A stretch of 64,000 nt of DNA, taken from the NCBI GenBank assembly GCA_048246715.1, contig DBFBCB010000037.1:17703-81702 (forward strand), in the 5' to 3' direction. Below are positions 48,680 to 60,310 of this stretch, in pieces. A model generated the notes under the pieces. The model had not been told where the DNA came from, did not search any database, and saw only the letters and a list, made by a program, of their open reading frames with translations. The DNA is from Collinsella aerofaciens (GTDB lineage Bacteria > Actinomycetota > Coriobacteriia > Coriobacteriales > Coriobacteriaceae). The translations under genes and the position numbers were made by a program. Within the stretch, counting starts at the first letter, position 1. Every line of letters begins with the position of its first letter.

Positions 48680-48950
48680 ATTACAGTCTGAAATAGGCCA
48701 TCGATAAATTTCGATGGCGAGCATTCGGCGCATTGCCTACGATACGGGCAAGCCCCGAGGGGCCGCCGATCGGGCGCCTCCGGATGGCCGTCTGCCCCTG
48801 CCCCGTAGAGGGCCCGGGGGGTGTTGCCACCGGGGGCGCTCGCCGCTCCGGACGACTGATAGGAAACTGCCGGGCGCAAGCGCCACGGCCAGGTAATGTG
48901 GGTGTCGCGGGGAGGGGTTCCGATCGGCCTACCGATTGGAGGATACCACC
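48680..48950 (+). ncRNA. predicted IS110-type bridge (guide) RNA region in the left end
   Basis: Inferred from the family architecture (long structured 5' non-coding end). GC-rich self-complementary segments. Not folded or searched. Confidence 0.35.
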
Positions 48951-50108
48951 GTGGCACCAATTAGAATGCCGGAAGCCGTCATCGGGCTCGATGTCGGGAA
49001 ATCGTCCCACTGGGCATGCGTCGCGACTCGAGATGGCGAGGTGCTGTTGAGCACCCCCGTCGCGAACAGGGAGGACGACCTGGACTCGCTGTTCGGCCGC
49101 TTCCCCGATGCGCTCGTGGTCGTCGACCAGTCGCGCAACATAGGCGCCCTCGCGCTCGCCCGCGCCAGGGCGGCCGGGATGTCGTCGGCGTACCTGCCGG
49201 GACTCGCGGCGCACGGGGCCGCCAGGCTCTTCGCCGGCGACGCCAAGACCGACGAGCGAGACGCGATGGTCATCGCGAAGACGGCGCTTGGCATCCCCGA
49301 CGCGCTCCTGCCGGTCGGAGACCCAGGTCCGACGATTGCGGCGGCGAGGGCGCTGGCCGCCCAGAGGAACTTCCTGACCTGCGAGAACACTAGGAATAAG
49401 AACCGGCTGCGCAGCATCCTGCTGGAATCGTGCCCCGCCTTCGAGGCGCTGGTCGACCTGTCCGACGGGCCCCAGCTGAGGCTCATGGCATCCCTCGGCG
49501 GGGCCTGGTCGGTAGCCGACGCCGGGCCCCGCAGGGCGGCGGCGCTCACGCGTGGGGCGGCGCGCGGTAAGATCGAGGCCCTCGTCCGCTCGACAACCTC
49601 CTCGACAAGGCCGGATGCGTCGGTCGTCGCCGCCGAGGACCGGGCGGTGAAACTGCTCGCGCGCAGGATATCCGAGAACTCGGCGGAGATCGAGGCGATC
49701 ACGGCGGAGATCTCCGCCCTGCTCGAGGGCGACGATACCTACCGATGCCTCCTGACGGTGCCGGGCATCGGGCCCAAAACCGCTTCCGAGCTTGCGATCT
49801 CCATCGACATCGAAGACTTCCCCAGTCACGACAGGCTCGCGTCGTACTGCAGCCTGGCGCCGCGCAACCGCCAGTCGGGAACCTCGATCTCCTCGGTGAC
49901 GGCATCGCGCCAAGGCAACAAGAGGCTGAAGAACCTGCTCATATTCTCATGTAACTGCCTTACCCGGACAGAGGGGAGATGGGGCGACTACTACACCAGG
50001 TGCCGGGAGCGGGGCATGTCGCACGGCAAGGCGCTCAAGGCGCTGGCGCGAAAGAGACTGAAGGTCATCTACGCGGTAATGCGAGACAGGGTGCCTTACG
50101 CAGCCTAG
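48951..50108 (+). CDS. IS110-family transposase (DEDD/RuvC-like plus Tnp domain)
   Basis: VIGLDVGKSSHWACV N-terminus and LLTVPGIGPKTASELA helix-hairpin-helix. Start probably GTG 48951 after GGAGGA. Confidence 0.9.
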   Translation: MAPIRMPEAVIGLDVGKSSHWACVATRDGEVLLSTPVANREDDLDSLFGRFPDALVVVDQSRNIGALALARARAAGMSSAYLPGLAAHGAARLFAGDAKTDERDAMVIAKTALGIPDALLPVGDPGPTIAAARALAAQRNFLTCENTRNKNRLRSILLESCPAFEALVDLSDGPQLRLMASLGGAWSVADAGPRRAAALTRGAARGKIEALVRSTTSSTRPDASVVAAEDRAVKLLARRISENSAEIEAITAEISALLEGDDTYRCLLTVPGIGPKTASELAISIDIEDFPSHDRLASYCSLAPRNRQSGTSISSVTASRQGNKRLKNLLIFSCNCLTRTEGRWGDYYTRCRERGMSHGKALKALARKRLKVIYAVMRDRVPYAA

Positions 50109-51833: not shown

Positions 51834-52033
51834 CTCATCTACCGTAGCAATCGACTTCCCTCACCAAATGGCCCGACCTGTCTTCTATCCGAATCGCCAT
51901 GGCCGCAGCCTGCGTCAGCGGCGACCCGCGACTCGTTTCCCGATTATACCAGCTGCAACCGAGAAGAGCTTTCCCAGGCTCCTGCGCAGGGCAAAAACGA
52001 GCACGAAGAAGAGGGCGACTTGGATACCAAGAA

Positions 52034-52140
52034 CGGTCGCGCCTCCTCGATCTTATGGAAGAGAGGCTGCCTCGCGAGGAATGGCGAGCCATGGGCTTCG
52101 GAGACGGCCGGGAGAGGCACCCGCTCTGGTCTAAGTGGTT
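52034..52140 (+). pseudogene. second fragment of the Abi_2 C-terminus (72 nt duplicated from 48541-48612)
   Basis: RSRLLDLMEERLPREEWRAMGFGDGRERHPLWSKW. Confidence 0.7.
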
Positions 52141-52486
52141 AGTCAACGAAAAGGTCGATGAAAGCTTCAACGAAGAGAGCCGGCAAAACGAAGGTCGGCA
52201 GGACCAGACAAAGGGGCCCGGCCAACAGCGTTGCCACGCCCCATGTCAGCTCTTGTTGCAGCCGCTCGCGCGTCATGCCAGGATCTCGTTCGCGCGCTTC
52301 TACACCGTTGAGCCTCACCATGCAGCCGAGACGGACAGAAGACCGTGAGCACGGCGAAGAAGACGCGACTGGCTCATCCTTCAATCAATCCAATATATGA
52401 AATCAGATGCAGCCCACTCCAAAGACAACTTCGAAGTTCTTGATTTAGCTACAGCTTTACTGTCACTTACAGCGCCTAAATCAGCA

Positions 52487-53932
52487 TCAGCCCCTACCCG
52501 TTGCCTTGTTAATTTTCCTATACATCTTGGAAACATGGCCACTAATGGGATCATTCGGAAACGCCTTCTGAGCTCTTGCAACATATGAAAGATAGTTTCC
52601 ATGGTGGCTTGGGTCCGAAGTGCCTCGCTTGTCACTCGATCTGTTCCCCTTCGGAGAGTAATGCTCGTACAATGCGCTTACGCGCTTTTTACTCGGATGC
52701 TTGTCCGGATTATCGGCCAGCCTGCCGATTGATTTAGCAGCACGATAAAACCTGCTGTAAAACCTGCCGACCGTAGATTGGCGAATTCGGACATCTTTAC
52801 CGTCAAAATCAAATCCCAAAAACGAAACATGATTTCCAGCATGATGCGCGGTTCGCACAACTTCCATTTCTCCTGCGAGCAATGCACCAAGTGAAAGTTG
52901 CTCGACCCTCCCATCGTTTACACGGTGGATTTTGGTCTTTTCATCTTGTAGTTCAACTGCAGGAACTCCCTGTGCCAAAGCAAGTGCATTGCTTGCTGTT
53001 TTGAGATCCTTGGCTCGGACGATAATGATGAAGTCATCGCAATATCGTATATACCTGCCATTCACGCTGGCAACACACGCGTTAATCTGGGCATCGATAT
53101 CAAACATATACATGTTCGCCAAGACGCCACTTGTTGCCAGCCCTTGGGGGATGCCCCTCGCATCATGACTTCTTTTCCAAGGCACAACAATCGAAGAACC
53201 CTTGTAAGCCGAAAACTCCGCAGGTGTCAAGATGCGCGGTAGCCTGTTAAGACTCCTTAACGCCTTGGATCGAACTTTGGACGCAGAATCGCCAAACGTG
53301 AACGGGTCGTCTGGCTGAAGATCAATCCAGCCAAGCCCATTCCTTCTCGCTAAATCGCCAACAGGCCAATAACAGTAATGCAATATGTTTTTCAGGACTT
53401 GGTAATGGTCCGGTGGAAGCACGCCCTCGTTAAAGAATCCTCTAACGGCCTTGCGTAAGTAACTATGGTCAAGGTTATCGAAAAAGTGGGTGAAGTCTCC
53501 CGTGATAACTAGCGAATCCCCCTGCCCGCGAATGGCATCGATTGCATCTGCAGCAACAGAGCAATTAGTGAGGTGAAATCCGCTTCGATAAGCCGTAGCA
53601 ACACTGCCGATACCAGTTTCTAAGGCACGACGGTCATATAACTTGCCCCATTGCAGCGCATAATACTGAAAAATCCTATGATCCAAGTGAGATGCATATG
53701 CGATATCTCTCGTCTTCAGGATCTTCTTACCGTCCCTGAATCTCACATGGCAAAGCGTATTCGCAATCAAGGGAAGAAATGCGTGACGCTGAATAAAATC
53801 TACGTCACAAACCCTCGCCTCGACATCCTTGAATGCGACACGGTAATCGAAATGCGCGTAGCTCTTCTTTATCGCATACCCTGGAATACGAGGCGGGTCG
53901 AAATCGTCCACGGGCTCACCGCCTTTAATCAA
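52487..53932 (-). CDS. reverse transcriptase, UG/Abi-type (defence-associated RT candidate); not retron- or group-II-like
   Basis: RT motifs ITGDFTHFFDNLDH (A), GIPQGLATSGVLANMYM (B) and YIRYCDDFIII (C; YCDD at 53033-53044), plus SFLGFDF. No maturase, endonuclease or other fused domain. TTG/GTG start. Confidence 0.85.
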   Translation of the reverse strand: MIKGGEPVDDFDPPRIPGYAIKKSYAHFDYRVAFKDVEARVCDVDFIQRHAFLPLIANTLCHVRFRDGKKILKTRDIAYASHLDHRIFQYYALQWGKLYDRRALETGIGSVATAYRSGFHLTNCSVAADAIDAIRGQGDSLVITGDFTHFFDNLDHSYLRKAVRGFFNEGVLPPDHYQVLKNILHYCYWPVGDLARRNGLGWIDLQPDDPFTFGDSASKVRSKALRSLNRLPRILTPAEFSAYKGSSIVVPWKRSHDARGIPQGLATSGVLANMYMFDIDAQINACVASVNGRYIRYCDDFIIIVRAKDLKTASNALALAQGVPAVELQDEKTKIHRVNDGRVEQLSLGALLAGEMEVVRTAHHAGNHVSFLGFDFDGKDVRIRQSTVGRFYSRFYRAAKSIGRLADNPDKHPSKKRVSALYEHYSPKGNRSSDKRGTSDPSHHGNYLSYVARAQKAFPNDPISGHVSKMYRKINKATGRG

Positions 53933-54478
53933 CCTGCTCGGTATATAGGAAGCGGCTCACCCAAACCGAGCAGGCTAACATAAGGTGAAGCGAGTTCACC
54001 AACGCAATGCGGCCGCCCATTCCAATGCTTGCCTATGGCATACTAGATGGAGATGCGGAGATAACCGATATGATTATCAGCGCCCTTGCCCAGCTATGCG
54101 CAGGCAACGTCGGCATCAATAGTGCGAACGTCGGAATTTCGTCGTTTGCGCTATTGACGGCGATAACGCACCTTTACGCCAAATGCGTAAAGCAATTTTA
54201 TTGTACCGGAATGCTATCTTGAATCACGCGATCGCATCAGATCAGAAATATAGCCTACCTGAAAGAGAGTTATCGAAACTTACATTGGCATCAGATGCTT
54301 GAGGCCTTAGTGTCAATAAATACAGAGCAGCTGCCCACAGCCTAGCGGCGACATCCCGGTCTCGGACGGTCTAACGCTGCCCGAGACCTTCCTCTTATCA
54401 AAGCGCCACCGTAAGACGCATGGCTATATCATAAAATGGCACGTATAAACCTCCGTTGATCGAAAGAAAGTCGAGCAT
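53933..54478 (-). ncRNA. candidate structured non-coding RNA / template region upstream of the RT (hypothesis)
   Basis: 546 bp with no convincing ORF. Several hairpins: 53935-53975 abutting the RT start, 53984-54000, 54171-54191 and 54357-54389. Short direct repeats AACGTCGG and GCATCAGAT. Confidence 0.3.
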
Positions 54479-55768
54479 ATGTCAAGAGTTGACGAAGTTA
54501 GAGCAGAGCTGGGCGAGGACAACGTCAACGAGCTTATGGACGCCTACTACACCTCTGGCCTCTCACTGAATGATCTGAGGGAGCTCTATGACCTCCCGAA
54601 GAGCTTCACAGACAAGAAGATCGTTGAGCTGTTCCCTATGATTGAGCTGGACGATGGCTGCCCCCTTTGCGGCGGTGCGCTCTTTGCGCCTAGAATCAGC
54701 AGGGGCATCAAGGACGTCTCGGCGGACTCGTACTATAAGGATCAGGTCTTCTGCCCAAATTGCGGTAAAACTAGACAGCAAGCAATGCGAGAGCTCGAAG
54801 AGTTTGAGCGGAAGTACAGGCTGCGTCGTGCATTCTCAATTGAGCCGAAAGAGTTCGAATGGGCCAAGCGCAATCCTGATAGCCTCACGAGCACAGTATT
54901 CGAGGTCCTGATCGAAGTAAGAGGCGGGGGTGGCAATACCTACCTTGGGCCCATCGCAGACCAACCGCTCTTGTTTGGCTTCATCGACGTCTGTAAGGCG
55001 CTCAGGGGCGAGGGGTACATTCAACCAACCGCAGCATTCGACAAATGGTTGAGCGGGTTTGAGGAAGAGGAAGACGGCTTCAGCTTCTATTGGTACAAGG
55101 TGCCCTTTGCAATCAAGTTGAAAGGCTACACTGCCCACGAGAGAAACCCCATCATCGTCGTAGGTGATCGCGAATACGTCGCGCTTGGTCAGGGTGAGCG
55201 CGAGTACTGGCTGCGAACCGCAAAAGGTCTCGTTCTAGCCTACCTCGATGTCCAGCTTGACGATGCGTGCTACGAGTATGAGGGACCGAAGCGCGAAGAG
55301 TTTGAAACTCTGCTCGACACCATGCTCCTAGAATACTCGCCCGCACAGATCACCTCGCTCATCTGGAACGCGATGGCGACTGCCGAAAAGCACGCAGAGG
55401 AGGGTCCTGCCTACAAAAGAACAGGCAATTGGGCAATGGGTGTCGTCCTCAACCGTGCTAAGAAGGCTCTCTCCGAGCATTGGGATTTGCATCCGAACTT
55501 CCCCTCAAGGACGGTTGAGGACACCGAGTTCGAGTGGAACTTCTTCGACGTCCATGTACCCATAGGCGAAACTTGGATGTACAGGAGCGTCCCCGAGGTC
55601 ACGGGCGGCTGCATAGAAATCAAACATGCAAAGATGCCGAAAGGTGCCGATGCCGCAACAGCGGCCATGATAGCGAAAGCCCGAGAGATCGCTTGGAGAA
55701 TCGGAACGGGCGAACCCGATTACCTCTCGTACGACGAGACCGACCGGTTCATCAAGCGGTACGAATAA
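54479..55768 (+). CDS. hypothetical protein with an N-terminal CxxC...CxxC zinc ribbon
   Basis: 429 aa. CPLCGG ... CPNCG. No other recognisable domain. Divergent from the RT gene. Confidence 0.6.
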   Translation: MSRVDEVRAELGEDNVNELMDAYYTSGLSLNDLRELYDLPKSFTDKKIVELFPMIELDDGCPLCGGALFAPRISRGIKDVSADSYYKDQVFCPNCGKTRQQAMRELEEFERKYRLRRAFSIEPKEFEWAKRNPDSLTSTVFEVLIEVRGGGGNTYLGPIADQPLLFGFIDVCKALRGEGYIQPTAAFDKWLSGFEEEEDGFSFYWYKVPFAIKLKGYTAHERNPIIVVGDREYVALGQGEREYWLRTAKGLVLAYLDVQLDDACYEYEGPKREEFETLLDTMLLEYSPAQITSLIWNAMATAEKHAEEGPAYKRTGNWAMGVVLNRAKKALSEHWDLHPNFPSRTVEDTEFEWNFFDVHVPIGETWMYRSVPEVTGGCIEIKHAKMPKGADAATAAMIAKAREIAWRIGTGEPDYLSYDETDRFIKRYE

Positions 55769-57567: not shown

Positions 57568-58647
57568 TTATGGTTTCCAAACGCTTAGCGTGTCTGGAAG
57601 CTCATTTATTTTATTGTCAGCAACCACGAAGCCAACGCTGAACCTCGCCCTAGTAATTGCAACATAGAGCTTGGAGCGCGTCTGCGGCTTCAGATCCGTT
57701 GAAGCGTCTTGCAACCAAGAGGCCATATCGGCAACTGGATAAATCAGAACATGGTCATATGTTCGGCCTTTTGCTTTGCCGAAGTTGCAGACCAATGAAG
57801 CGTTCGCGGTCTGAGTGGCGACGCTATGTCTCAAAATCACTGGATCCAAAAACTCGCAATACTTTTGTGCAAGTGACTTTGGAATAGCCCAAACTCCATT
57901 ATGGGTTTCATTTGAAGCGGCACACAAAGATTCGGTTGGTGGGAACTCCGGATAGACCATGTTTGCGAATTCGATGACGCTCTTAGAGCAACGATGCGTT
58001 CCGTTGAGAGTCGCGCGATCTATCTCGCAGAGCGACGTAAGCTTCTTTTTCTCGATATATTGCTCGAGGCTCAGACCCTTGTTCTTGTTTCCAGCATTGG
58101 TGCGATAGGTTGACTGCCTCTCATCGCCGCACATGACTACGGGCATGCCAGAGGATAGAAGCGCGGCGATAAAGTCATAGTCGTATCCGGCCATATCTTG
58201 TATTTCATCGATGAGCACAACGTCGAACAGCTCCTTGATCCTTTCGATAACCGCTCCGAAACTGCATTCATTGCATTTCAGCGCAAGCGCTGGAAGTTTG
58301 GCCGCATAAATCTCTTTCGATTTATTACAGTAATAACGAAGGGTTCCTTTCTTATAGAAATTCCTTCCTTCAGGATTCAGGTCAACCCCGCTGAATTTCT
58401 CTTTACCGAAGCCCGCAGCGCCTTGGAAAGGACGCACTCCGTGCTCAAGAAGGAAGGTGAACCACGGGAGTACAGTGATGTTGGAAGGGATGCAGCCATA
58501 CTTCTGATAAATCATCTCCTTCGCCACCGCCGAATTTTCATCCGTAAAGGTGGTGTAAAGGATTTTTTGATCGGCATCCGAAAGACTATTGATTAAGAAT
58601 GTGGTTTTTCCTGAGCCGGCAGCAGCTAAATAGATCTTAGATTTCAT
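57568..58647 (-). CDS. gajB: UvrD-like SF1 helicase-family protein, GajB-like (short)
   Basis: Walker A AAAGSGKTT, DEIQD box, and motif VI YVAITRAR. 11-nt overlap with the upstream OLD gene. Confidence 0.75.
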   Translation of the reverse strand: MKSKIYLAAAGSGKTTFLINSLSDADQKILYTTFTDENSAVAKEMIYQKYGCIPSNITVLPWFTFLLEHGVRPFQGAAGFGKEKFSGVDLNPEGRNFYKKGTLRYYCNKSKEIYAAKLPALALKCNECSFGAVIERIKELFDVVLIDEIQDMAGYDYDFIAALLSSGMPVVMCGDERQSTYRTNAGNKNKGLSLEQYIEKKKLTSLCEIDRATLNGTHRCSKSVIEFANMVYPEFPPTESLCAASNETHNGVWAIPKSLAQKYCEFLDPVILRHSVATQTANASLVCNFGKAKGRTYDHVLIYPVADMASWLQDASTDLKPQTRSKLYVAITRARFSVGFVVADNKINELPDTLSVWKP

Positions 58648-60310
58648 CTAATTCGCCTCGCACCCAAGCAATGGTTTGCATTATGTATTCCGGATACGAC
58701 AAGGTTTCCACCGAATCAAATATCTTGAGCGCGACCTCTGTCTTGTTTTCCTCCATATACTTGAGTGCGGAATCTCGATCCTTGAACTCTTTGCCCAAGA
58801 TTTTCGACAGCATTTCAGCGCCAATCGATTCGTACATCTCTGCTTCAAGCGTGTTGTAGTTGATTCCCTCCATGCTGCCCTTTTCAAGAAGCCTATTTGC
58901 GTACGAGACGACTTGCAGTTCATCTTCTTGAGCTAGGGTTACATACTTGTAGCCTTGATACTTCTTTTCCAGTGCCCCAATGTTTCCATCGTTGTCGGTC
59001 ATGGCGATAACCCTCTTATTGATCACCTCTGCAACTTCAAGGAATCGAAGGAAGCTTGTTCCGACGGAAATGACATCGACACCATCCTGAATTGGAAGTT
59101 TTCCATCGGAGGCATTCATATATGCGCGCTGGACAACGAGCTCGTCAGCATCTCCCTCGACGAGAATAGCGGTATCGCACAGAAGAACCCTCAATGTCTT
59201 GTATCCAGGGGCCTTCATGAAGAACCTAGAGGTATCCTCGCTCAGGTCTCTCATCGAGGCAGAATTACCTCCGTTGAGAAGGATCAAGTTCCTAAGCTCG
59301 AGCTTGTTTGCAACGAAGCTGCTATGTGTCGTGATGATTAGCTGAACCCCCTCACATCGGCTCTTCACGCCCTCAAGGAACATATTCAACCTAGTATGTG
59401 AAAGATGGTTCTCGGGCTCTTCAAGCAATACCACGTTGCCGCCACGCTTTTCGCTCTTTGCCAAAGCGAGCTCTGTGCTGACGATGCTTTTGGTTCCATC
59501 TCCTACGTTGGAGAATGGAATATCCTCAAGTTTGGTGATGACTCCATTTTCCCAGGAGTTTACTGTGCCCGCTTCGAACCCAAACGTTACAGCCTTATTC
59601 GTGAGACTCTTTGCTCTTTCGGAAATCTTTTCATTTATACTTTTGACGGTTTGGTCGGCGGAAAAGCCAGTGCGCATTCTTCTATGCACTTGCGATATGG
59701 CTATCTGATCGGATCTTTCCAGCACGTCTCTTGCAATTCTTGTCACTATCGCTTTCGAACCAGGCCAAGCAAGAGAATTGCCAGCGCCAACTAGTGCCGA
59801 CTTGAACTTGATGCCAGCAGGGCGGATGCTCTTTCTGGCAAATGTCGTCCATGAGCATGCGTAGTATTCGATAGGTAAACCATGGTGTGATTTCGCGGCA
59901 ACAAAGTCTTGGTACTCATCGGAAAAAGACTCTGCGTCTATGGCGATATCTAGCTTGATTCCAGATTCAGCGACACCGCGACTATTAAAGTCGCCCTTAT
60001 AAAGAGCAACTGTGTCCTCTTCGCCGGAAAATACCACCTCGATAACAATGCTCGGAGGATTGCAAGGCTTTCCGTTCTTCAGCAGGCAAAGATACTCGTC
60101 AACGATATCCTTGTTAAAGAGATCCTCGGAAATGCTCCTCATCAGCGGAGCTCCTCGATATTGACCATCGATTACTGCTGTTACCGCCTCAAGCAGCGTC
60201 GACTTTCCAGAATCATTATCTCCAACGACAATGTTTATTCCTTCGGAAAACGAGATGCTCGCCTCGCGAAATCTCTTAAATCCAAATACCCTGAGCTCTT
60301 TTATATGCAC
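58637..60310 (-). CDS. gajA: OLD-family ATPase + TOPRIM endonuclease, GajA-like (Gabija)
   Basis: GDNDSGKST Walker A, LLEEPENHLS, ITTHS, and TOPRIM ILVEGDADE ... AMTDNDGN. GTG start after GGTGGA. Confidence 0.8.
   Translation of the reverse strand: MHIKELRVFGFKRFREASISFSEGINIVVGDNDSGKSTLLEAVTAVIDGQYRGAPLMRSISEDLFNKDIVDEYLCLLKNGKPCNPPSIVIEVVFSGEEDTVALYKGDFNSRGVAESGIKLDIAIDAESFSDEYQDFVAAKSHHGLPIEYYACSWTTFARKSIRPAGIKFKSALVGAGNSLAWPGSKAIVTRIARDVLERSDQIAISQVHRRMRTGFSADQTVKSINEKISERAKSLTNKAVTFGFEAGTVNSWENGVITKLEDIPFSNVGDGTKSIVSTELALAKSEKRGGNVVLLEEPENHLSHTRLNMFLEGVKSRCEGVQLIITTHSSFVANKLELRNLILLNGGNSASMRDLSEDTSRFFMKAPGYKTLRVLLCDTAILVEGDADELVVQRAYMNASDGKLPIQDGVDVISVGTSFLRFLEVAEVINKRVIAMTDNDGNIGALEKKYQGYKYVTLAQEDELQVVSYANRLLEKGSMEGINYNTLEAEMYESIGAEMLSKILGKEFKDRDSALKYMEENKTEVALKIFDSVETLSYPEYIMQTIAWVRGELDEI

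Follow-up and report, generated by a model that had tools for sequence, protein, structure and literature searches.

A 64,000-nucleotide (nt) stretch of Collinsella aerofaciens (GenBank assembly GCA_048246715.1, contig DBFBCB010000037.1, positions 17,703 to 81,702 of the forward strand), here called the window, carries a cassette that is very probably a DRT2 (UG2-class) anti-phage system, made up of one reverse transcriptase (RT) gene and a noncoding RNA (ncRNA) of ~272 nt encoded just upstream on the same strand. The locus is an intact, divergent and currently unannotated DRT2 member, of a known class and not a new kind of system. An earlier note on this DNA had proposed a single-gene defence RT with an upstream ncRNA as template, taking DRT2 as the model, and this central idea is supported by the RT class, the ncRNA architecture and covariation. 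All positions are those of the window, and the features are listed in Table 1.

The 481-amino-acid (aa) RT open reading frame (ORF) with a TTG start, as first described, is present at its position. Its core blocks, including YCDD, are all there and invariant among homologues, and it carries no fused domain: RVT_1 is the sole Pfam match, and no maturase or endonuclease domain was found on the RT by Pfam. The earlier note had held that the class could not be assigned and had suggested a class check. This check, run with PADLOC, assigned the RT to Drt2, not to retrons or group II introns. PADLOC model PDLC03757 (Drt2) matched RT residues 22 to 476 (E=7e-109, 363 bits), and a second Drt2 model matched at 2e-62; matches to other PADLOC classes were UG17 (5e-21), Drt9 (1e-15), Drt3a (2e-15) and retron RTs (~1e-9). 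In the PDB, the Drt2 cryo-EM structures 9c0i, 9lje and 9lv7 were the only strong matches (E, 1e-31 to 1e-34), followed by a group II maturase at 5e-4, and the RT aligned to the solved Drt2 structures across fingers, palm and thumb. Identity to proteins labelled Drt2 by their sources was only 25 to 28%, and the close relatives are unnamed metagenome proteins. On these model and structure matches, the RT belongs to the DRT2 (UG2) family.

There is next to no chance that a retron, a group II intron or some other RT class (DRT9, DRT3 or Abi) has here been mistaken for DRT2. The RT matches all these classes weakly, through generic RT-domain similarity, but Drt2 scored 363 bits against at most 73 bits for any other class model, the group II RT/maturase model TIGR04416 reached 61.5 bits (cutoff, 300), and retron RT models reached at most 45 bits (cutoffs, at least 235). 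In 52000-55000, an Rfam search with a limit as loose as E≤1 gave neither a group II intron nor a retron RNA family. With model scores far under the cutoffs and no such RNA family, the earlier exclusion of both retrons and group II introns holds.

The true RT start is probably the GTG at 53911, giving a 474-aa product, because homologous RT genes begin there (alignment of upstream regions) and the frame from TTG reads TTG ATT TAG in the 65%-identity clade. The TTG falls within the 3' arm of the ncRNA terminal hairpin. A hairpin at 53935-53975 had been described as abutting a non-ATG start; the hairpin is real, being the core of the 15-bp terminal hairpin 53928-53979, whereas the TTG sits inside it and is probably not the start. 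In homologous locus L001, the 510-aa call P0001 is over-extended.

Between the RT ORF and the divergent gene at 54479 lies a 546-bp gap (53933-54478) that, as had been noted, has no minus-strand ORF of at least 40 aa. The description of this whole region as hairpin-rich stands for its RT-proximal part and fails for the distal half, which is neither structured nor conserved. The RT-proximal 272 nt (53925-54196) had a minimum free energy of -110 kcal/mol (z=-5.03; equalled by none of 200 shuffles), and the distal 270 nt folded no better than shuffled sequence (z=+0.38). Conservation of the ncRNA starts abruptly at a hairpin near 54192 and extends to the RT start in loci with RT identities of 40 to 94%, and sequence farther upstream is unrelated between loci. 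The ncRNA is conserved in more than 80 Collinsella variants. The whole gap was ruled out as ncRNA, with conservation and structure ending at about 54196 to 54208, and the short direct repeats previously reported in it are two-copy matches of 9 to 20 nt, as chance would give.

Covariance analysis across homologues, which the earlier note had suggested, was run with RNAalifold on an alignment (A2) of 14 nonredundant representatives. The ncRNA had 79 pairs with 98.1% of cells paired, and 19 pairs (72 cells) were changed on both sides. The observed covariation score was reached by 0 of 500 column shuffles, and a control with the 3' partners slid by 1 to 3 columns gave 30 to 44% paired and no more than 11 double-change cells. 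The upstream element is a conserved, structured ncRNA with 19 compensatory pairs and a DRT2 layout. The 4-bp basal stem that would close the predicted template (54165-68 with 54014-17) was 98% paired, with changes on one side only. A pseudoknot may form between 54012-54017 and the terminal loop at 53951-53956, as weakly suggested by one compensatory change (G-C to A-U, in L007) and a change from U.G to U-A in three variants; 24 to 34 of 500 shuffles equalled its score. The basal stem and this candidate pseudoknot compete with each other. The canonical DRT2 scaffold contains a pseudoknot.

For transcription of the ncRNA, the position of the candidate -10 box reads TACAAT, TATAAA, TACAAA, TATAAT or CATAAT according to clade, and Clostridia relatives have a full TTGACA-17-TATAAT at the same promoter position. 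The sole minus-strand match of a promoter scan in the gap (54276..54247) was left unused; it sits in unconserved sequence.

The cassette was compared with the systems described by Tang et al. 2024 (bioRxiv 10.1101/2024.05.08.593200) and Wilkinson et al. 2024 (PMC12039810). A DRT2 ncRNA is ~280 nt long, with a 5' handle and a ~120-nt template that a basal stem closes, with both ACA-1 and ACA-2 at its flanks, and which is copied by rolling-circle reverse transcription via template jumping; the neo ORF is antisense to the ncRNA, stop-free and of a length divisible by three, and the -35 and -10 of a sigma-70 promoter meet solely across the repeat junction (Tang 2024; PMC12039810). In the neo sense, the canonical unit begins just after ACA-2, has its -10 at about positions 12 to 17, continues with GGAG and ATG, and ends with TTGACA and 6 nt (Tang Table S1). 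Assuming that the cassette works like KpnDRT2 (Tang 2024; Wilkinson 2024), its RT would bind the ncRNA scaffold and copy a 138-nt template from 54164 down to 54027, and concatemeric complementary DNA (cDNA) would result. On phage infection, the second strand would be made and the junction promoter would fire, and a never-ending ORF of 46-residue repeats (MLAYGILDGDAEITDMIISALAQLCAGNVGINSANVGISSFALLTA) would be translated, causing growth arrest (abortive infection). It is from this analogy that we infer cDNA synthesis and phage defence by the cassette.

With KpnDRT2 and other proteobacterial DRT2 systems, the cassette shares a single RT with an upstream same-strand ncRNA of ~270 to 280 nt, a 5' handle followed by GGUGC...GUCAA, a predicted template that a short basal stem may close, the succession unit-end -35, unit-start -10, GGAG and ATG, and a stop-free antisense frame divisible by three. 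The 5' hairpin and following GGUGC...GUCAAUA of the Vibrio splendidus DRT2 ncRNA (Tang Table S1), GCTTTACGCGATAGGCGTGAAGG GCUGUG ACAGAUUGUCAAUACC, are strikingly like those of the window, GCTTTACGCATTTGGCGTAAAGG UGCGUU AUCGCCGUCAAUAGC. The window differs from canonical DRT2 in its unit of 138 nt (46 aa; canonical, 120 nt and 40 aa), in its nonidentical jump repeats AUCG/AUUG (canonical, ACA/ACA), in its promoter offsets of 5+12 nt (canonical, 6+11 nt) with TGgCATACT as -10, and in its host, a Gram-positive high-GC actinobacterium.

No part of the ncRNA is less conserved than the predicted template, which is 138 or 144 nt long in 83 Collinsella variants, the sole indel being +6 nt in a hairpin loop. 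Its 3' flank is steadier: AGCAUUG is kept from Clostridia to Collinsella, and 84 of 85 Collinsella variants have AUUG as the acceptor within it. The donor is ACUG in the 48% clade. In Clostridia, units have AUUG 6 nt ahead of GUCAA and a second AUUG in AGCAUUG, and give junctions of the form TTGACA-ACAAT/12 nt-TATAAT (slash, junction), in which the spacer is 17 bp and a TG extends the -10. When boundary pairs were set by promoter geometry (-35, 17 bp, -10) in 17 representatives of three ncRNA sub-types, the resulting unit lengths were 126, 129, 132, 138, 144, 147, 150, 159 and 162 nt, all divisible by 3. Two other repeats were rejected as jump sites: GUUAUC...GUUAUC (102 nt apart), the second copy of which is not conserved in other clades, and UGCGUU...UGCGUU, with an unconserved second copy and a distance of 164 nt, which is not divisible by 3. 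In L107 (metagenome contig OHKD01002675.1), a 106-nt deletion between the GUCAA and CAUAGGC anchors leaves little of the template; its RT, 49% identical to that of the window, is intact, making it a natural "template-less" DRT2.

On the plus strand, antisense to the ncRNA, a 231-nt stop-free frame spans 53989-54219. In homologous loci, gene callers repeatedly predict a small ORF in antisense at the corresponding place, and the peptide MLAYGILD...LLTA is recognisable in this frame in L001 to L009, down to 40% RT identity. Only one circular frame of the window unit is open; shuffled versions of the unit are open 30% of the time. Across the superclade, the circular antisense frame is open in 17 of 17 representatives (shuffled units, 4 to 42% of trials each), and it stays open in every one of the 83 unique Collinsella variants whose anchors are intact. 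TTGACG and TGgCATACT form a predicted promoter only across the head-to-tail repeat junction, where TTGACG-GCGAT/GCTTGCCTATGG-CATACT has a 17-bp spacer and a TG at 54036-37. Relatives have TTGACA at the same -35 offset, as does canonical DRT2, and TGnTATAAT at the same -10 offset (GATAAT in L069). In the reverse complement of the alignment, GGAG or AGGAG followed 5 to 11 nt on by ATG stands at the aligned position in every clade. A by-eye model with TATGAT (54069-74) as -10 and a 108-nt unit was discarded, since this hexamer runs into the conserved ATG and other clades have no TANNNT there.

Several points weigh against the DRT2 reading or parts of it. The top NCBIfam match of the RT, the Drt2 equivalog, scored 273 bits, below its cutoff of 390. 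Rfam RT-12 (gathering threshold, 44.2 bits) had no match in 52000-55000, even at E≤1, and the RT-6 match at 54124-54194 (minus strand; 25.4 bits, E=0.013) is under its gathering threshold of 46.7. Of 85 Collinsella variants, only L007 has the same donor and acceptor (AUCG at both), and the others have AUCG or ACUG against AUUG, a difference at one position. The variable positions of the donor covary with helix 3 instead of following the acceptor. CATACT is a weaker -10 match than the TATAAT of relatives, and the promoter rules of Coriobacteriia are poorly known. Template substitutions had no three-base periodicity in a codon-position entropy test, so the test gave no sign of protein-level selection on the neo frame, and part of the "conserved peptide" is nucleotide conservation at the RNA and promoter level. 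The entropy test is itself uninformative, because RNA structure constrains all positions. Every mechanistic step beyond the structured RNA rests on analogy. Lastly, the circular frame is also open for a shorter, 123-nt unit, in 14 of 14 representatives and 83 of 83 variants.

This shorter unit belongs to an unlikely variant of the same DRT2 system, in which the template would be the 123 nt at 54043-54165, between UAU 54163-54165 and UAU 54040-54042, with a 41-residue repeat and no canonical junction promoter. It emerged from a column-pair scan as a pair with a conserved direct repeat of 2 to 3 nt and a length divisible by 3 (123 or 129 nt), and the unit would start CTAGATGG, reminiscent of the canonical TAGAAATGG. 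However, no -10-like hexamer lies 16 to 18 bp from TTGACG across the 123-nt junction, the repeat is merely UA in the 48% clade (UAC versus UAU), and Clostridia relatives have no repeat at that position, whereas AGC-AUUG is kept in all clades and gives exact TTGACA-17-TATAAT junctions.

It is very unlikely that the cassette is a DRT2-related RT-ncRNA module lacking a translated neo, its frame held open by RNA constraints and its cDNA acting otherwise (e.g., as decoy, sensor or primer). The lack of three-base periodicity in the putative frame and the imperfect donor and acceptor repeats would fit such a module, and Tang et al. call Neo annotation "more challenging" in divergent DRT2 clades and raise alternative mechanisms. 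Set against it are the nine unit lengths across the superclade, all divisible by 3 with the circular frame open, the conserved antisense Shine-Dalgarno sequence and ATG, an only indel that keeps the frame (+6 nt), and the retained geometry of the junction promoter.

Within the preferred reading, a DRT2 system with a 138-nt template, donor AUCG and acceptor AUUG are the same at three of four positions, and the fourth could pair via dG:rU wobble at the cDNA end. Among Collinsella-type loci, L007 and L069 are the only ones with identical donor and acceptor; the two are also identical in all Clostridia relatives and in most Eggerthellaceae relatives. We tentatively suggest, with rather less than full conviction and as a proposal that may or may not hold, that Collinsella and other Coriobacteriia have a distinct DRT2 sub-type, in which AUCG or ACUG would jump onto AUUG by dG:rU wobble, and a template hairpin instead of the acceptor would dictate the donor sequence. 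In this sub-type, the Neo repeat would be 46 residues long, the junction promoter with its extended -10 would suit a high-GC Gram-positive host, and the 3' scaffold would stay under the RT-12 and RT-6 thresholds.

A Gram-positive DRT2 branch is already published, because Tang Table S1 lists Flavonifractor sp. An100 (locus L080; RT, 35% identical) and Clostridiales KLE1615 as DRT2, with ncRNA, cDNA ending TTGACAACAAT and Neo coding sequence. With relatives 35% identical already described there, the suggestion of the earlier note that the cassette may be an undescribed variant is not supported. Clostridia-branch systems share with the window an RT of 34 to 37% identity, the 5' hairpin and ...GUCAA, the acceptor AGC-AUUG, the 5+12-nt offsets, the extended -10, and Neo-like peptides of the form L-x-[YH]-x-I-[IL]-[ED]...L-T-[TA]-[MIV]. 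Unlike Collinsella, loci of the Clostridia branch carry AUUG as both donor and acceptor, a consensus TATAAT, units of 126 to 162 nt (126, 132, 144, 147, 150, 159 and 162 nt) and another 3' scaffold sequence. Among the entries covered, which for Tang Table S1 are a part of the table, the Tang and Wilkinson supplements had no Collinsella or Coriobacteriia entry, and that part of Table S1 had no Collinsella-type sequence. None of the papers searched meaningfully links DRT2 with Collinsella.

The canonical DRT2 scaffold corresponds to RT-12, which scored 98.1 bits in Stutzerimonas locus L171, whereas the 3' scaffold of the window had no match. RT-6 scores in L001, L003, L009 and L010 were 23 to 26 bits, like that of the window, whose match is probably homologous, given its location and strand, although not a member by the Rfam criterion. 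These Rfam motifs of unknown function can be mapped onto DRT2 ncRNAs: RT-12 is the canonical 3' scaffold (L171, 1362-1484, plus strand) and RT-6 is the 5' handle and template start of the Clostridia-branch ncRNA (L153 to L170). DRT9 (poly-dA synthesis) and DRT10 (telomerase-like repeats) likewise pair a defence RT with an adjacent structured ncRNA to make repetitive DNA, but both are protein-primed and copy very short templates, and DRT10 requires a SLATT partner. The window, in contrast, has a predicted 138-nt template, which would be protein coding in antisense, and no conserved partner gene.

An identical RT is found in Collinsella aerofaciens NZ_JBDMHA010000057.1, and dozens of Collinsella genomes and human-gut metagenome contigs have RT relatives that are 44 to 94% identical. 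Relatives at 34 to 40% are found in Adlercreutzia/Enterorhabdus/Eggerthellaceae and in Clostridia (e.g., Flavonifractor, Ruminococcus, Oscillospiraceae and Acutalibacteraceae). A third ncRNA sub-type occurs in seven Adlercreutzia/Enterorhabdus/Eggerthellaceae loci (L072, L075, L076, L079, L087, L159 and L160), with GAGCAUUGUCGUAAAC after the handle, a 129-nt unit, TTTACG as -35, CACAAT or TACAAT as -10, and Neo-like peptides FICGTIA...DGDFV...FTT[IV].

Table 1. Features of the cassette and its neighbourhood, in window coordinates
Feature	Position	Strand	Remarks
DRT2-class RT ORF	52487..53932	-	481 aa from TTG; GTG at 53911 is the probable true start (474 aa)
DRT2-type ncRNA, ~272 nt	53925..54196	-	Both ends placed by conservation
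Candidate -10 box TACAAT for transcription of the ncRNA itself	54203..54208	-	7-8 nt ahead of 5' hairpin; proposed from the alignment
5' handle hairpin (P1)	54172..54192	-	8 bp, 5 pairs with compensatory changes
Basal stem, 5' strand, predicted to close the template	54165..54168	-	Pairs with 54014-54017; RNAalifold helix 2
Predicted template, 138 nt	54027..54164	-	Boundaries by homology to relatives' AUUG..AUUG units and junction-promoter geometry
Predicted donor tetranucleotide AUCG	54161..54164	-	6 nt ahead of GUCAA, as is AUUG in Clostridia/Eggerthellaceae relatives
Predicted acceptor tetranucleotide AUUG	54023..54026	-	Just 3' of template; counterpart of ACA-2; in conserved AGCAUUG
Template hairpin domains	54110-54163 and 54029-54107	-	Inside basal stem; compensatory pairs: helix 3, 7; helix 7, 3
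Two small 3'-scaffold hairpins	54003-54011 and 53984-54000	-	RNAalifold helices 8 and 9; helix 8 invariant, helix 9 with one compensatory pair
Long terminal hairpin of 3' scaffold	53928..53979	-	15 bp, 3 compensatory pairs; inverted repeat I2
Terminal-hairpin loop GCCGCU	53951..53956	-	Candidate pseudoknot partner of GGCGGC 54012-54017; pairable in 100%
Predicted neo-like repeat unit, 46 codons	54027..54164	+	MLAYGILDGDAEITDMIISALAQLCAGNVGINSANVGISSFALLTA; junction codon ATG, split after AT
-35-like TTGACG	54154..54159	+	5 nt from unit end; reverse complement of invariant GUCAA
Extended -10-like TGgCATACT	54036..54044	+	Hexamer 54039-54044, 12 nt from unit start; consensus match
Antisense Shine-Dalgarno GGAG and ATG	54056..54072	+	GGAG 54056-54059, ATG 54070-72; downstream of -10
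IS110-family transposase, intact	48936-50108	+	DEDD_Tnp_IS110 (9e-32) and Transposase_20
RES-domain gene, 451 aa	50478-51833	-	C-terminal RES domain, 8e-9
429-aa protein with CxxC...CxxC	54479-55768	+	Divergent from RT; no Pfam, NCBIfam or PADLOC match
HEPN-like gene, 375 aa	56331-57458	-	Weak HEPN_Cthe2314 match, E=0.006, under cutoff
Gabija GajB	57568..58647	-	PADLOC, 2e-100
Gabija GajA	58637..60310	-	PADLOC, 2e-169; overlaps GajB by 11 nt
PifA-like gene, 794 aa	60766-63150	-	PADLOC PifA, 1e-71
PDC-S35 candidate defence/TIR-like gene, 253 aa	63176-63937	-	5e-99

The cassette is indeed AT-richer than its flanks (GC content, ~0.48, versus 0.60 to 0.70 on the left flank). An IS110 transposase in the GC-rich flank (~0.70) marks a composition boundary ~2.4 kb from the cassette. 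Neither the "Abi remnant" nor the "IS256 remnant" said to flank it was recovered: the flanking ORFs gave no such Pfam match, and tblastn queries with a fragment of the IS256 family and with an Abi_alpha protein, both from homologous loci, gave none either. On one side of the cassette are the RES-domain gene and the IS110 transposase, and on the other are the 429-aa gene, the HEPN-like gene and Gabija; neighbouring genes vary between homologous loci. The 429-aa gene, which adjoins the RT in L001 (93% clade), is not part of the system, because it is linked to the RT only in the >90% clade. The HEPN-like and RES-domain proteins are, from their domain matches, possible toxins or defence effectors. 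The Gabija pair is complete and close to the cassette, which sits in a defence island reaching the window end.

To our knowledge, DRT2 experiments to date have all been on proteobacterial systems in Escherichia coli. Here, the complete DRT2 logic (handle, template, in-frame antisense ORF, split promoter, and ribosome-binding site with ATG) is retained in a common human-gut actinobacterium. The Collinsella RT and RNA are too diverged for the NCBI Drt2 and Rfam models to name, and DRT2 is therefore under-counted in defence censuses of gut Actinomycetota. With its 138/144-nt unit, imperfect jump repeats and one template-deletion allele, this branch offers natural variation on the rules of template jumping and Neo toxicity. 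If true, the proposed wobble jump would relax the "identical ACA repeats" rule of programmed template jumping.

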